From contig NZ_JBBINI010000014.1 of NCBI RefSeq assembly GCF_037443965.1, forward strand, positions 6,431 through 70,430: a stretch of DNA of 64,000 bases, read 5' to 3'. The translations under genes were made by a program, and so were the position numbers. This document shows, piece by piece, positions 1 to 59,832 of the stretch (positions are counted from its first letter, which is position 1; each line of letters starts with the position of its first letter). The DNA is from Meiothermus sp. GTDB taxonomy: Bacteria > Deinococcota > Deinococci > Deinococcales > Thermaceae. The notes below the pieces were generated by a model that made no database searches, was not told the DNA's origin, and saw only the letters and a list, made by a program, of their open reading frames with translations.

Positions 1-211
1 CGCCTTGTTGCAATTGCTGGGGGGATAGCGAGAGCAGCTTGTTCAGGGCCCCCCGCACCTTGAAGCTTCCGGTGGGCTGAAGGTTTTCCAGCTTCAAGTG
101 CACCTCGGCCCCAGTGATGTGCGAGAGGGCCGGCGAAAGCTCCAGCGGCGTCTCGCGCAGGTAGGGCCGCAGGCGGGCGTGGGCCTGCCGGATGGCCAGG
201 GGCCAGTTCAT
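1..211 (-). CDS. Threonine/serine dehydratase family PLP enzyme (5' part; runs off the window)
   Basis: Own translation from ATG at 211: MNWPLAIRQAHARLRPYLRETPLE...HLKLENLQPTGSFKVRGALNK, the fold-type II PLP motif SFK.RGA. Not in the ORF track. Confidence 0.8.
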   Translation of the reverse strand, partial: MNWPLAIRQAHARLRPYLRETPLELSPALSHITGAEVHLKLENLQPTGSFKVRGALNKLLSLSPQQLQQG

Positions 212-31700: not shown

Positions 31701-33428
31701 TTACCCCCGCACCTCCCGAAGCCAGTCCAGGAGGGCCGCCAGCGGGTGGGTGTTGAGAACCTGGGCCGGCCCCAGCCAGGCCCGCTGGGCGGTGCCCACG
31801 GCCAGCTCCATAAAGCGCAGGTGGTCGAGCTGGTGAGCATCGGTGGAGAGGGCAAAGCGCACGCCCATCCCCCCGGCCTGCCGGGCCAGGGTGTCGGGCA
31901 GGTCCATGCGGTCGTAGTAGCCGTTGATCTCGAGGGCCTTTCCCAGGGCTTTGGCCCGGTGAAAAATCTTCTCCCAGTCGGCCTCCAGGCCCTTGCGTAC
32001 CCCCAGCATCCGGGCGGTGGGGTGGGCCAGGATGTGCACACAGGGGTGCTCCAACGCCCGCAGGAGGCGCCGGGTCTGCTGGGCACGGCTCAGGTTGAAA
32101 TGGGAGTGAACCGCCACCAGCACCACCTCGAGCTCCCGCAGCACCGGCTCCGGGTAGTCCAGGGTGCCATCGGCGGCCACCTCCACCTCGGCCCCGGCCA
32201 ACAGGTAGGGCTTGCCGCCGGTTTTTTCGTTTACCTTGCGAATTTCCCTCAGGCGGGCCTGCACCTTCTCCAGCGGCACCCCGTGGGCCACCTTGAGGCT
32301 CTGGGAATGGTCGGTGATGGCCAGGTAGGCATAGCCCAGCTTCTGGGCGGCCTGGGCCAGCTCGAGCAGGGTGGCTTTGCCATCCGACCAGCGCGAATGC
32401 ACCTGAAGGTCGCCCCGAACCTCCTCGAGCTGCACCAGCCGGGGTAGCTGTCCGGCCTGGGCGGCTTCAATTTCGCCGCTGTCCTCCCGCAGAGGGGGCG
32501 GAATCCAGGGCAGGCCCATCGCCCGGTAGACCCCGGCCTCGTCCTCACCTGCCAGGCGCGCCTCCCCCCGCCAGACCCCATACTCGTTGAGCTTAAGGCC
32601 CTGCTTCTGGGCGAGGGTGCGCAGCTTGATGCTGTGGGCTTTGGAGCCAGTCAGGTACTGCAGGCCGCTGCCCCACGCCGCAGGGGGCACGGTCTTGAAG
32701 TCCACCTGCAGGCCCCCCTGCAAAAAGACCGTGGCCCGGTTCTCGCCCACTGCTTCCACGTCGGCAATGCCCGGCAGCCGCACCAGGGCCTCGAGCACCT
32801 GGGCTGGGGTCAGGGTGGCAATCAGGAAGTCCAGGTCGCCCACCGTCTCGCGGTAGCGGCGGAATGAGCCGCAGATCTCGGCTTGCTGCACCCCCGGCTG
32901 GGCGCGCACCTGCTCGAGCAGGGCTCGAGCCTGTCCAAGCACCGCCCCCAGGGGTCTTCGCTGGGTGGCCGTCTCGGCCAGGGCCAGGTTTTCCAGCAAA
33001 TGCTGGCGCTTCTTCTCGCCGAAGCCCGGCAGGCCCAGCACCTGCTTGGAGGCCAGCGCGGCCTGGAGTTTTGCCAGCGAGTCTACCCCCAGCCGCTCCC
33101 ATAGGAGCCGGGCGGTTTTGGGCCCCACCCCCGGCACCCGCAGCACCTCCAGTACCCCCGCAGGCACCTGCTGGGCCAGCTTGCTGTGGGCCTGAAGGGT
33201 GCCCGTGCGCAGATACTCCTGAATCTTGGCGGCCAGGTCGGGGCCGATGGAGGGAAGGGCCTGCAGGGCTTCTTCTCCCTGGGCGGCAATGGCCTCGATG
33301 GGGGTCTCGAGGTCGGCCAGGGTGCGGGCAGCCTGGGTGTAGGCCCGCACCCGGAAGGGGTTCTCGCCTAGGAAGGCCAGCATCTCGGCCATCTCCTGAA
33401 ACCGTTGGGCAATCTCGGCGTTTTTCAT
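31701..33428 (-). CDS. polX: DNA polymerase X with C-terminal PHP domain
   Basis: ENPFRVRAY, GSFRR..ETVGDLD, YLTGSKAH, DLQVHS.WSDG, TDHS, STDAH. Confidence 0.95.
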   Translation of the reverse strand: MKNAEIAQRFQEMAEMLAFLGENPFRVRAYTQAARTLADLETPIEAIAAQGEEALQALPSIGPDLAAKIQEYLRTGTLQAHSKLAQQVPAGVLEVLRVPGVGPKTARLLWERLGVDSLAKLQAALASKQVLGLPGFGEKKRQHLLENLALAETATQRRPLGAVLGQARALLEQVRAQPGVQQAEICGSFRRYRETVGDLDFLIATLTPAQVLEALVRLPGIADVEAVGENRATVFLQGGLQVDFKTVPPAAWGSGLQYLTGSKAHSIKLRTLAQKQGLKLNEYGVWRGEARLAGEDEAGVYRAMGLPWIPPPLREDSGEIEAAQAGQLPRLVQLEEVRGDLQVHSRWSDGKATLLELAQAAQKLGYAYLAITDHSQSLKVAHGVPLEKVQARLREIRKVNEKTGGKPYLLAGAEVEVAADGTLDYPEPVLRELEVVLVAVHSHFNLSRAQQTRRLLRALEHPCVHILAHPTARMLGVRKGLEADWEKIFHRAKALGKALEINGYYDRMDLPDTLARQAGGMGVRFALSTDAHQLDHLRFMELAVGTAQRAWLGPAQVLNTHPLAALLDWLREVRG

Positions 33429-57407: not shown

Positions 57408-57683
57408 TCAGTGTCTGAGCAGGCGCACGGCCTCTACGATGGCCTTGGTGTCCCCCTGGCCTTTGGCCAGGTCGGCCCGGCACTCTTCCAGGTAGGTTTC
57501 AAAGATGAGGTCGCCGGTGGCTTCCAGGGCGCTTCTGATGCCAGCCAGCAGCGTTAAGATCTCGCGGCAGTCGCGGTCTTCTTCCACCATCTTTTGCAGG
57601 CCCCGAACCTGTCCCTCCAGCCGCTTGAGCCGGTTTAGGACGCGGGTACGGGCCTCGAGGTCGTGTTTCTTGACAGTGCGCAT
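57408..57683 (-). CDS. CsoR/RcnR family repressor
   Basis: RLKRLEGQVRGLQKM, DC, LEEC; start at ATG 57683. Confidence 0.9.
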   Translation of the reverse strand: MRTVKKHDLEARTRVLNRLKRLEGQVRGLQKMVEEDRDCREILTLLAGIRSALEATGDLIFETYLEECRADLAKGQGDTKAIVEAVRLLRH

Positions 57684-57686
57684 AGC

Positions 57687-57704
57687 GTATCCCCAGGGGG
57701 TATC
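57687..57704. promoter_or_regulatory. CsoR-type C/G-tract operator 1
   Basis: GTATCCCCAGGGGGTATC immediately before the repressor ATG. Confidence 0.7.
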
Positions 57705-57750: not shown

Positions 57751-58563
57751 CTATTCCAACTGCCGCAGAAGCTCTTCAAGCTGGGCCCGGTTCACCGGCC
57801 CTAAGTGGCGGGCCCGCACCTTGCCGTCGGGGCCGATGAGCAGGGTGGTGGGCAGCCCGCTTACCTGGAAGGCCTGTTGCAAGCCGGCGCTGTCCAGGAA
57901 AACCCGTGCCGAAAGCCCGGTCTGGGCTAAAAAGCCCTGGATGGCCCCTACGTCCTCGCCGGCGTTGAGCAGCACGATGGGGTAGCCCTTCTGCTGGTAC
58001 TCCACCAAAAGGGGCATCTCGGCCCGGCAGGGGGGGCACCAGGTGGCCCAGAAGTTGAGCAGCATGGGTTTGGGGAGTTCGGCAAAGCGCACTTCCAGAG
58101 GGCGGGTTTGGGCGGGCTCGAGGTACTGCAGAACGCGGCTGGCATACTCGGGCGGGGTGGAGGGCTGGGCAGGCCGGGTCAGGCTAAACTGCACCCCCAG
58201 GGGCAGCAAGGCCAGCGCCAGCGCCGCGCCGCCCGGTAACAGGAGCCTGGGGCTTTCCCGGCGCACGATGAGCGCCGCCGCCAAGGCCCCCACCGGAACC
58301 CCTACCCACCAGTTCCAGCCGCCGCTGCGGATGTCCACAAGGCCCAGAAGGGCGGCCCCCAGGCTGGGCCAGGTGGAGAGGTGGGCCACCACATAGCCCA
58401 TCCGGGCGGCCAGGAGCGTAGCCAGCAGTACCCACCAGGCTTTGCTTTCCAGGCCTTGCCGGGCAGCCAGCCAGGTAAAGGCCAGAATGCCCACCAGCAG
58501 GGCCAGGTTGGGCCAGCTCAGGGCCAGGGGGCCCAGCAAAAGGGCGTCCGGGGTGAGTTTCAT
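57751..58563 (-). CDS. TlpA-like thiol-disulfide oxidoreductase with N-terminal membrane (Lgt-like) domain
   Basis: LLAARMGYV; NFWATWCPPCRAEMP; GLPTT. Confidence 0.88.
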   Translation of the reverse strand: MKLTPDALLLGPLALSWPNLALLVGILAFTWLAARQGLESKAWWVLLATLLAARMGYVVAHLSTWPSLGAALLGLVDIRSGGWNWWVGVPVGALAAALIVRRESPRLLLPGGAALALALLPLGVQFSLTRPAQPSTPPEYASRVLQYLEPAQTRPLEVRFAELPKPMLLNFWATWCPPCRAEMPLLVEYQQKGYPIVLLNAGEDVGAIQGFLAQTGLSARVFLDSAGLQQAFQVSGLPTTLLIGPDGKVRARHLGPVNRAQLEELLRQLE

Positions 58564-58694
58564 CGGCTATACACCACCCATCCCAGCGCCAGCAGCGCGA
58601 TCCAGGGGGCTACCCGGCATAATGAAAACCCACGTAAACGGCAGGCCAGCCCGCTGCGCAGGCGCTCCACCCCAACTTTTATAAACCGCGTCAT
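58560..58694 (-). CDS. Unlisted 44-aa small membrane protein coupled to TlpA
   Basis: MTRFIKVGVERLRSGLACRLRGFSLCRVAPWIALLALGWVVYSR; its TGA overlaps the TlpA ATG (ATGA). Confidence 0.45.
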   Translation of the reverse strand: MTRFIKVGVERLRSGLACRLRGFSLCRVAPWIALLALGWVVYSR

Positions 58695-58705: not shown

Positions 58706-58726
58706 TTATACCCCAGGGGGATATAA
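58706..58726. promoter_or_regulatory. CsoR-type operator 2 overlapping TATAAT
   Basis: TTATACCCCAGGGGGATATAA. Confidence 0.7.
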
Positions 58727-58785
58727 TCTGCAAAAGTTAGGGAAATTCCCATGCACAACACACAGGAATAGCGCATACGTTGGGA

Positions 58786-59214
58786 TTACTGTGCTTTGAC
58801 GGGGGCTTCCACCAGCAGGGTGCTGCCCCCCTCGAGCCGCAGGGTGATCCGAACGATCTTGCCTTCCTGCAGGGGTTCCTTAAGCATCATCAGCATGATG
58901 TGATACCCCCCTGGTTTGAGCTCGACCTTGCCCTTGGCCGGGATTTCCAGAAACTGAATGGGGCGCATCTGCATAACGTCTGTGCCCCCTGCACCCTTAA
59001 CGATGGTGGTTTGGTGGATTTCTACCTTACCAGCGATGGGGCTTTCGGCGGCAATCACCCGAATGGCCCTGTCGCTGGGGTTGGAAAGGGTCATGAAGGC
59101 CCCGCTCACCGGGCCAGGTACCAGGCGAACCCAGGGATTTTCGGCTTTCAGAGAGGTTTGGGCAAAGGCCATCAGGCCTGCCATGCCCAACAAAACCAAC
59201 AGTGTGCGTCTCAT
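58786..59214 (-). CDS. Copper chaperone PCu(A)C
   Basis: Signal peptide; W.R..PG..SGAFM; EIH...MQM...LKPGGYHIML. Confidence 0.9.
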   Translation of the reverse strand: MRRTLLVLLGMAGLMAFAQTSLKAENPWVRLVPGPVSGAFMTLSNPSDRAIRVIAAESPIAGKVEIHQTTIVKGAGGTDVMQMRPIQFLEIPAKGKVELKPGGYHIMLMMLKEPLQEGKIVRITLRLEGGSTLLVEAPVKAQ

Positions 59215-59325
59215 ACGTTGCTCCAGCTCGAGGCCGCTATGGCCTCCAAAGAAAGACAGCTCAGGGTCGTGGATGTTTATATCCATCCTTGAAGGTTTTT
59301 GTGTACGTTAACAGGTACTACCTGC

Positions 59326-59709
59326 TCAAGCCCACAACGGCGGCCCTCGATAAGGGGTGTGTTCCCAGAAGCTATATCGGATGTACACCGGTTCCGGTGG
59401 TGTGGCTTGTAGCAGCCCTATCTGTATATAGGGCCGCACCTCTGTCGCAAACGCGGTTAATGCTATGGCAAACGCAGAGTTCACGCAGAGGGGGCAGTGG
59501 GGTTGGTGGGTATGGGTGGGGGAGGGGGTGGGCTGGGTGTGGGAAGTCCCTGTAGAAAAGGTACAGACGTCGGCACCCGCCAAAAAACTCACTGGCAGCA
59601 CTTGGCTGCGCGGGTCGCGAAGCGCGTACTGGCTCGAGACCAAGAGCACCAGCCCCGCCAGGAAGAAAACCCAGAGGGCGCGGTGGACTCGAGTCGGAGC
59701 CGCCGACAT
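59326..59709 (-). CDS. DUF2946-like membrane peptide with CxxC and C-terminal RGPP (CruR-like)
   Basis: N-terminal TM, His-rich linker, HCPLC, ends YRGPPLWA. Confidence 0.7.
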   Translation of the reverse strand: MSAAPTRVHRALWVFFLAGLVLLVSSQYALRDPRSQVLPVSFLAGADVCTFSTGTSHTQPTPSPTHTHQPHCPLCVNSAFAIALTAFATEVRPYIQIGLLQATPPEPVYIRYSFWEHTPYRGPPLWA

Positions 59710-59761
59710 ACTTAAAAACCATTATAGCCAGGCCCCCCCTAGGGGCAAACGTCCCACGACA

Positions 59762-59780
59762 CATATCCCCCAGGGGTATG
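59762..59780. promoter_or_regulatory. CsoR-type operator 3 between DUF2946 and trxB
   Basis: CATATCCCCCAGGGGTATG, next to TATACT. Confidence 0.7.
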
Positions 59781-59832
59781 TTATACTGGCCCATGAAGGG
59801 CCGGCATTATGCTGGTCTTAGGAGACTTTACC

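Follow-up and report, generated by a model that had tools for sequence, protein, structure and literature searches.

Roy et al. 2022 (PMC9426467) described the hallmarks of the CruR/DUF2946 family as a CxxC motif, a semi-conserved upstream cysteine, a C-terminal RAPP motif and a spacing of about 45 residues (+/- 1-2), and in CruR itself, which is 145 residues long, the RAPP occupies residues 139-142 and leaves three residues to the end. According to the same study, more than 95% of DUF2946 members carry an export signal, their genes stand first in copper-related operons with long intergenic regions, a few occur in "Deinococcus", and genes for PCuAC, ScoC and AhpC_TSA are found in DUF2946 operons. 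Moreover, Fujiwara et al. 2025 (PMC12992588) reported that RGPP gives the most stable arrest among the RAPP-like motifs and is not relieved by elongation factor P (EF-P), that these motifs are depleted from proteomes and enriched close to the C-terminal ends of small exported proteins whose genes lie upstream of others, that the downstream gene classes found enriched explicitly include PCu(A)C, and that toeprinting places the third codon of the motif in the P site when CruR arrests in vitro. The DUF2946 family has been reported to use both polarities of control (PMC9973294; bioRxiv 10.1101/2025.02.05.636593). In the present study, a 64,000-nucleotide stretch of Meiothermus sp. (contig NZ_JBBINI010000014.1, positions 6,431 to 70,430; hereafter the window) was analyzed around a short open reading frame (ORF) at 59326..59709 (-), stop codon included, which lies directly upstream of a gene for the periplasmic copper chaperone PCuAC and encodes a CruR-like leader of the divergent DUF2946 type. 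We consider it probable that this leader controls PCuAC in cis as a copper-responsive RGPP arrest peptide; we infer the arrest itself and the copper responsiveness from homology, and the polarity and the involvement of Rho are likewise inferred.

The leader protein has 127 amino acids (MSAAPTRVHRALWVFFLAGLVLLVSSQYALRDPRSQVLPVSFLAGADVCTFSTGTSHTQPTPSPTHTHQPHCPLCVNSAFAIALTAFATEVRPYIQIGLLQATPPEPVYIRYSFWEHTPYRGPPLWA). Residues R7, H9 and R10 precede a 15-residue hydrophobic core, LWVFFLAGLVLLVSS (residues 12-26, 59632..59676 (-)), which was predicted from hydropathy, AlphaFold2 and conservation to form an export signal or an N-in transmembrane helix. The Kyte-Doolittle mean of this N-terminal segment reached 1.94 (19-residue window), AlphaFold2 modeled a helix at residues 5-29 with a mean predicted local distance difference test (pLDDT) score of 91 for the block 11-20, and a near-invariant SSQYALRDPRSQ.LP motif follows the helix. 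Outside the N-terminal helix the model was essentially disordered (mean pLDDT 56), which resembles the disorder reported for CruR. Cys49 (59563-59565) stands just upstream of a linker tract rich in His, Thr and Pro, with histidines at H57, H66, H68 and H71, and the linker runs into HCPLC, whose CPLC is residues 72-75 (59485..59496 (-)); the linker together with HCPLC (H66, H68, H71, C72 and C75) is the probable copper-binding region. The RGPP motif is residues 121-124 (59338..59349 (-), codons CGA GGG CCG CCG) and is followed by LWA and TGA. Exactly 45 residues (59350..59484 (-)) separate CPLC from RGPP, and this interval holds a weak, moderately hydrophobic helix in the AlphaFold2 model (residues 75-89) and a clade-conserved tunnel segment, FWEHTPY. 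Six-frame segments of the window, 78,448 residues in total, contained the pattern CxxC-(43..47)-R[A/G]PP once, in the leader. The sequence-only reading of this DNA had described an N-terminal transmembrane segment, a His-rich linker, CPLC and an RGPP three residues ahead of the stop codon in a host from the Deinococcota, and every one of these was recovered here, the host being Meiothermus. An upstream extension of the leader (MGQYNIPLGDM...), as called in the homologues P0001 and P0002, was rejected, as the frame differs in the window and the extension would cross the operator and the promoter. Apart from that of the leader, the window has a single R[A/G]PP no more than five residues from a stop codon (about 32099-32293 (+)); it lies in a shadow frame of a 575-residue gene at 31701-33428 (-), which resembles a family X DNA polymerase with a PHP domain, and was judged spurious.

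The family assignment was examined at the level of the single protein and of the whole leader family. The window leader alone scored 16.4 bits (E 0.016) against Pfam DUF2946 (PF11162), where the gathering cut-off is 23.7, and the match placed residues 52-124 on profile positions 45-117 of 117, ending at RGPP. DUF2946 matches were found in 25 of 33 leader orthologues (best E 5.9e-05), and one orthologue, P0014 (55% identical), lies above the cut-off at 24.2 bits and bears the NCBI name DUF2946 family protein. Furthermore, a hidden Markov model of the leader family recovered P0037-P0040, which are DUF2946-positive at 24.5-46.5 bits, and an hhalign comparison of the leader family with Pfam-positive DUF2946 proteins gave a probability of 98.2% and an E value of 2.9e-14, with the upstream Cys49, HCPLC and RGPP aligned. 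In two metagenome contigs (L027 and L028), a Pfam-positive DUF2946 protein with HCKLC, 45 residues and RAPP three residues from its end is encoded directly upstream of a PCuAC homologue. No NCBIfam model matching the leader was found. The Pfam search that had been suggested as a check of DUF2946 membership thus failed for the window protein taken singly and held for its family, and the homology to DUF2946, as judged from these profile comparisons, is solid at the family level. All sequence-level hallmarks of CruR/DUF2946 were found in the leader: a predicted export signal, the upstream Cys, CxxC, R-A/G-P-P three residues from the end, the spacing, the position in the operon and a long intergenic region. 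The motif published for the family is RAPP, of which RGPP is a documented equivalent. The CruR-like reading is supported by this homology and by the predicted anatomy.

The database search returned 32 homologues of the leader; those named by their sources belong to Meiothermus or Calidithermus and are mostly labeled "hypothetical". Across the 33 homologues compared, R121, P123, P124, C75 and C49 were invariant and C72 and G122 were at least 90% conserved; RAPP replaces RGPP in one homologue, and the motif of L020 is CLLC. The spacing from CxxC to R-x-P-P was 44 or 45 in all related loci examined, and the residues between the two motifs were variable among homologues and clade-specific. The RGPP codons differed synonymously among close relatives (CGA/CGG, CCG/CCT), and the pairwise ratio of nonsynonymous to synonymous substitution rates (dN/dS) was 0.2-0.5 in most comparisons for both halves of the leader, with a maximum of 0.72 in one. 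By these comparative measures the leader is a real gene translated in the frame given here, and purifying selection acts on both of its halves. Such selection would also be expected of a small exported or membrane-anchored mature copper-binding protein that, for example, hands copper to PCuAC, with a non-regulatory RGPP and with PCuAC controlled by its promoter only, e.g. through CsoR. The N-terminal 45 residues, including SSQYALRDPRSQ.LP, are much better conserved than a plain signal peptide needs, and a CsoR-type box stands nearby, both of which speak for a mature protein. However, RGPP and RAPP are strongly depleted in bacterial proteomes and enriched at the C-termini of leader ORFs, the RGPP and its 44-45 spacing were kept while the interval was replaced wholesale between clades, the leader is predicted to be disordered, and both CruR and CutF act in cis and undergo rapid degradation. 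We regard a mature functional protein as quite unlikely on this balance, and prefer the arrest peptide.

If arrest at RGPP is real, its release might depend on membrane insertion or on Sec pulling force and not on copper, in which case the leader would monitor export capacity like SecM, ApdA and ApdP. The RAPP-type arrest peptides are classically Sec or YidC monitors, and in the window clade the hydrophobic helix at residues 75-89 would lie 33-47 residues from the peptidyl-transferase centre at arrest. In force-profile studies, that distance is roughly where membrane partitioning pulls on the nascent chain. Against this, the downstream gene encodes a copper chaperone and not a Sec or YidC component, and no related locus carried a sec or yidC gene in its unit; moreover, the invariant HCPLC, Cys49 and the His cluster point to metal binding, and the hydrophobic helix of the window clade is missing from the ancestral-type homologues. 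Release by membrane insertion or Sec pulling force in place of copper is considered very improbable beside copper-responsive arrest.

The gene downstream of the leader, at 58786..59214 (-), encodes a PCuAC periplasmic copper chaperone of 142 amino acids with a signal peptide (PF04314, E 3.9e-35), in which the MX21HXM motif (M83, H105 and M107) and also H67 are present. Its start at 59214 was backed by a Shine-Dalgarno (SD) sequence, GGAG at 59221-59224 (-), located 6 nt ahead of the start codon, and the gene calls of the orthologous loci support it too. An N-terminal extension from the in-frame ATG at 59286 (a 166-residue ORF) was rejected, since stop codons interrupt it in L015 and L020 and substitutions show no third-position bias. 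An untranslated spacer of 111 nt (59215..59325 (-), 49.5% GC) separates the two genes, where the sequence-only reading had PCuAC, rightly placed downstream, start after 112 nt. Metatranscriptome contigs from sludge, derived from a related population (about 89% identical), span the 3' half of the leader, the stop codon and most of the spacer (X27 covers 59231-59477 and X26 covers 59330-59471), and although they are fragmentary, with a depth of about 3 and possible DNA carry-over, they indicate that the leader 3' half and the spacer are co-transcribed in that population. A consensus scan of the spacer gave no internal promoter, and no Rfam family matched it.

Three hairpins had been proposed in the spacer, and all three exist at the sequence level: hairpin 1 (59312-59324 (-)), hairpin 2 (GGAUG/CAUCC, 59271-59288 (-)) and hairpin 3 (GAGGCC/GGCCUC, 59230-59246 (-)). 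Perfect stems of 5 bp numbered five in the spacer and 0.52 +/- 0.88 in a set of 1000 dinucleotide shuffles, of which 0.4% reached five; the folding energy of the spacer was ordinary (minimum free energy z = -1.4). Among seven distinct orthologous spacers, hairpin 2 was present in all, hairpin 1 was absent in L001 and L015, hairpin 3 was precisely absent in L015 and L033, and the number of compensatory pairs was zero. A role of the hairpins as conserved regulators was accordingly rejected, as two of the three are lost in some orthologues, no covariation is seen and the z score is ordinary. A 10-bp coding-region hairpin, GCGGCCCUAU/AUAGGGCUGC, with an alternative pairing to the RGPP codons was likewise rejected, as it is not conserved in the orthologues. 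Orthologue comparison also brought out a conserved spacer element resembling AACAAAACC, with the window form ACAAAAACC at about 59293-59301 (-). A 9-bp long-range helix between AACAAAACC in the spacer and GGUUUUGUU in the PCuAC codons was predicted to enclose the SD and the AUG, with arms invariant in six of the seven; the spacer arm of the window differs, so that two of its nine pairs are broken. This helix says little, because one arm is coding and no change is compensated.

These observations bear on a serious, if improbable, rival with the polarity of CutF, the DUF2946 leader of Rhodobacter capsulatus, in which copper bound to the nascent chain during export would prolong arrest, the spacer RNA would be remodeled and PCuAC translation would rise, so that copper would induce PCuAC, coherent with CsoR derepression. 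CutF is also a DUF2946 protein whose stalling is induced by copper, the leader has a predicted N-in export helix, three CsoR-type boxes surround the locus, and PCuAC has a good SD that could be gated. Moreover, base-pairing is possible in the window between the RGPP codons and the 3' arm of hairpin 3, the Pro codons of L012, L015 and L020 contain a CCUCC complementary to the PCuAC SD, and the AACAAAACC x GGUUUUGUU helix surrounds the SD and the AUG in six of seven orthologues. However, the leader has CxxC and RGPP and not the CxxxC and PPP run of CutF, and an arrested ribosome would cover the transcript only to about the stop codon, roughly 100 nt short of the SD. No conserved helix sequestering the PCuAC SD was found in the orthologous spacers, and the SD was not consistently hidden at 37 or 60 C, its predicted accessibility at 60 C being 0.2-0.7 and varying among orthologues; the absence of compensatory pairs and the loss of hairpins 1 and 3 in some orthologues tell against a gated SD as well. 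None of the CutF-type features (CxxxC, the PPP run and an SD-sequestering stem-loop) was found in the leader or in the comparison of the seven spacers.

The polarity demonstrated for Bordetella CruR is preferred here for the arrest peptide. On this model the leader would be transcribed from its own promoter as a leaderless or nearly leaderless mRNA, and the nascent chain would carry the N-in export helix and the His-rich HCPLC copper site. By analogy with the CruR toeprints, the ribosome would arrest at RGPP while its P site holds Pro123 and its A site Pro124, copper bound by the nascent chain would alter the duration of arrest, and that duration would set the expression of PCuAC beyond the 111-nt spacer. 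At low copper, the arrested ribosome would shield the transcript and the polymerase from Rho and PCuAC would be made; with copper present, arrest would be relieved, the ribosome would terminate and transcription would be attenuated before PCuAC. At arrest the CxxC would stand 48-51 residues from the peptidyl-transferase centre, a distance that we estimate to place it just beyond the exit tunnel, and this is consistent with the conserved spacing of 44-45. The CruR polarity is favored because the copper-delivery set of the relatives (NosD, NosF, NosL, NosY and PCuAC) is separate from the CsoR stress unit, because the spacer is long and untranslated, because there is no conserved SD-shielding structure, and because an extreme C-over-G tract lies upstream of the arrest site. 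This C-rich, G-poor tract (59485..59562 (-)), identified by a C-G skew scan, encodes the linker and HCPLC (residues 50-75) and is a candidate Rho-utilization (rut) site; no other 78 nt on the two strands of the window is as strongly skewed toward C over G (C-G = 0.50, 4.7 standard deviations). This arrangement fits, short of proof, a rut site that the ribosome shields or blocks while it is translating or arrested, as happens in Bordetella.

Several points weigh against copper-responsive, Rho-dependent control of PCuAC by the leader, in addition to the sub-threshold Pfam score of the window protein. The skew of the tract derives mostly from Pro, Thr and His codons, and synonymous avoidance of G within it is modest (1 of 17 against 4.6 expected per codon family, P = 0.025); strong synonymous selection for a G-poor rut site was rejected, as the pooled contrast of 15% against 38% G at third positions is only nominal after correction per codon family. 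The tract lies 140-215 nt upstream of the arrest site and does not run into the spacer as it does in Bordetella, and the spacer itself contains no C-over-G bubble. A CsoR-type operator near the leader promoter could point to induction of the unit by copper, and this would agree with the opposite polarity. The direct adjacency of leader and PCuAC is a derived state that arose from the cassette replacement described below. Finally, the copper motif reads YPLC (C72Y) in L012-L014 (Meiothermus sp. KatS3mg070 and two metagenomes, three independent samples), and the copper site may be dispensable in this lineage; CPLC is retained in L029-L031, which are near-identical to it.

The leader promoter, P1, was predicted by consensus scan (10 of 12 matches) at 59721..59748 (-), with a -35 hexamer TTGCCC (59743-59748), a 16-nt spacer and a -10 hexamer TATAAT (59721-59726). 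The distance from P1 to the leader ATG is 11 nt and no SD precedes the ATG, which suggests that the leader mRNA is leaderless or nearly so. The hexamers and the distance to the ATG were kept in most aligned Meiothermus loci, with divergence downstream of the -35 in L008 and L009. Two boxes carry a 17-bp G-tract pseudopalindrome, ATACCCCWGGGGGATAT, and a third box has three mismatches to it; the three matches lie within 2.1 kb and none occurred elsewhere in the 64 kb, where 0.26 would be expected. Box 1 (ATACCCCTGGGGGATAT, 59763..59779 (-)), recovered by the box search and by conservation across loci, stands in the region that separates the leader promoter from the divergently oriented trxB promoter; it is 14 bp from the leader -35, on its upstream side, and abuts the trxB -10 TATACT (59782-59787 (+)). 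Box 2 (58708-58724) is in the spacer of a second predicted promoter, P2 (58705..58734 (-), consensus scan and box search), and box 3 is at 57687-57703. The core of the box was invariant across the Meiothermus loci, and the box resembles the type-2 CsoR consensus ATATACCCCTNAGGGGTATAT (PMC3902906), a consensus that comes from Streptomyces. The position of box 1 suggests that trxB (thioredoxin reductase) is part of a copper-responsive CsoR regulon in Meiothermus, and the locus as a whole suggests that copper control is split between a leader-peptide unit for copper delivery and a CsoR unit of trxB, the TlpA-like gene and csoR.

The P2 unit contains three genes. A conserved ORF of 44 residues (58560-58694 (-), MTRFIKVGVERLRSGLACRLRGFSLCRVAPWIALLALGWVVYSR) starts close behind P2; it has two invariant Cys and a C-terminal hydrophobic segment, its stop overlaps the start of the TlpA-like gene (ATGA), it is conserved as protein down to 52% identity (L024), and it matched no family in Pfam or NCBIfam. 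The gene that follows (57751-58563 (-), Pfam Redoxin) encodes a TlpA/ResA-like redoxin (WCPPC) with an N-terminal membrane domain of about 150 residues that is weakly like prolipoprotein diacylglyceryl transferase (PF01790, E 1.2e-4, below the cut-off), an unusual fusion of a transmembrane domain with a redoxin. The last gene of the locus is csoR (57408-57683 (-), Pfam Trns_repr_metal).

Comparison with related loci indicated how the arrangement in the window came about. One gene order is shared by M. cerbereus, M. taiwanensis, a further Meiothermus and two contigs from outgroups, namely trxB (divergent), leader, nosD, the gene for an ATP-binding cassette ATPase (nosF), nosL, nosL, the permease gene nosY, PCuAC, the small ORF, the TlpA-like gene and csoR, whereas in the M. 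ruber-like clade of the window (L001, L012-L020 and L029-L033) PCuAC follows the leader directly; the PCuAC of M. ruber is 86% identical to that of the window. By blastn, the window and M. cerbereus are 85.7% identical in nucleotides from 61852 to 59481 and 85.3% from 58734 to 57418, and between them the 746-bp segment at 58735..59480 (-), which holds the leader 3' half, the spacer and PCuAC, had no detectable similarity to the syntenic 4.6-kb segment of M. cerbereus (L023 8230-12824). One junction of this cassette (59481/59480) falls immediately past the CPLC codons. Identity to M. cerbereus is 45% for PCuAC against 88% for the TlpA-like protein and 95% for TrxB, and the C-terminal half of the leader is almost unalignable; the GC content of the leader 3' half is 55%, that of the spacer 49.5% and that of PCuAC 58%, whereas the flanks have 65-68%. 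We read these data as a replacement of the native arrest segment, spacer and nosDFLLY-PCuAC block by a foreign or paralogous cassette of leader 3' half, spacer and PCuAC, with the 45-residue register kept. The residues before RGPP are clade-specific (FWEHTPY versus VFPLLN), in line with published work in which RAPP-like cores function beside diverse neighboring sequences. No close donor of the cassette was found; the nearest PCuAC proteins outside Meiothermus are at most about 46-52% identical, and one of their genes follows a canonical DUF2946.

A second mosaic was observed between the leaders of L001 and L015, where the synonymous divergence (dS) is 0.02 in the N-terminal half and 0.54 in the C-terminal half, with the change near CxxC, and repeated exchange near CxxC is suggested because of it. 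It is conceivable, though doubtful, that a sensor module (promoter, export helix and the linker to HCPLC) and an output module (RGPP segment, spacer and cargo) recombine repeatedly at the CxxC junction, that release in the window clade, whose arrest segment carries the hydrophobic helix, responds to copper together with membrane force, and that CsoR adds a two-layer, possibly band-pass, control. Among the ancestral-type loci, L002, L004, L010, L011 and L024 have a nosD-like gene after a spacer of 84-131 nt that is somewhat C-rich in most, and the leader-nosD spacers are mostly without a recognizable SD, unlike that before PCuAC in the window. In five metagenome loci (L038, L039, L041, L042 and L045), distant PCuAC homologues are preceded by a different leader, with RAPP two residues from its end and a CPCAxxC-type motif instead of HCxxC, which suggests that RAPP leaders for PCuAC are independent or highly diverged there.

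The present findings extend the CruR/DUF2946 family to a divergent Meiothermus/Calidithermus branch that Pfam mostly misses. The natural module swap that kept the 45-residue register gives independent evolutionary support to the view that the spacing and R-x-P-P matter and not the intervening sequence. We expect the ribosomes of Meiothermus to be closely related to those of Thermus, which have long served structural studies, and a thermophilic RGPP arrest peptide could suit structural work on Thermus-type ribosomes.

PcuC of Bradyrhizobium japonicum is a PCuAC-type chaperone. The copper-starvation-inducible pcuABCDE unit of that bacterium, with a cruR homologue at its head (PMC9426467), resembles the ancestral Meiothermus cruR-nosDFLLY-PCuAC order in joining a cruR-type leader to such a chaperone in one unit, and it differs from the window, where the unit consists of PCuAC alone directly after the leader. 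With the RAPP/RGPP arrest peptides (ApdA, ApdP, ApcA and SecM-like; PMC12992588; Morici et al. 2024, PMC10951233), the leader shares an RGPP core at its C-terminus, next to a segment that is specific to the clade (FWEHTPY or VFPLLN), and, like them, is a small protein with a localization signal encoded upstream of the gene it would regulate; the classical members, however, monitor Sec or YidC. The class also includes SLIV_16130 and SLIV_18480 of S. lividans, which lie upstream of metal genes; these two were not shown to be DUF2946 homologues. CutF, the leader of cutFOG in R. capsulatus (DUF2946; PMC9973294; bioRxiv 10.1101/2025.02.05.636593), is likewise a small leader peptide that is exported, carries a copper motif of Cys and stalls through a Pro-containing motif at its C-terminus, and it acts on the next, copper-related gene. 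It differs in its CxxxC and its EF-P-sensitive PPP run, where the leader has CxxC and RGPP, and in a short spacer with a stem-loop that keeps the SD of cutO covered, where the window has a 111-nt spacer in which no conserved SD-shielding hairpin was found.

The closest system is CruR of Bordetella pertussis (Bp2923; bp2923-bfrG-bp2921 operon, PMC9426467), which has in common with the leader the export signal, the upstream Cys, the CxxC, the interval of 45 residues and an R-x-P-P three residues from the end. Both head a copper-related operon with a long untranslated spacer (111 nt here and 162 nt in CruR), both have a C-over-G-skewed tract within the ORF, and both proteins are predicted to be largely unstructured. 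The two differ in that the leader has RGPP and is followed by PCuAC, whereas CruR has RAPP and is followed by a TonB-dependent transporter; in that the C-rich tract precedes CxxC in the leader and lies between CxxC and the spacer in CruR; and in that the leader has a leaderless-type start, a thermophilic host of the Deinococcota and a CsoR-type operator beside its promoter, and is too divergent in sequence to pass the Pfam cut-off by itself. Because PCu(A)C has already been published downstream of DUF2946 and of RGPP/RAPP leader ORFs, the leader is a new, divergent member of the described CruR/DUF2946 family, the kind of system being known already; what is fresh is limited to the exchange of the cassette and the layering with CsoR, and the known picture of the family is unchanged.

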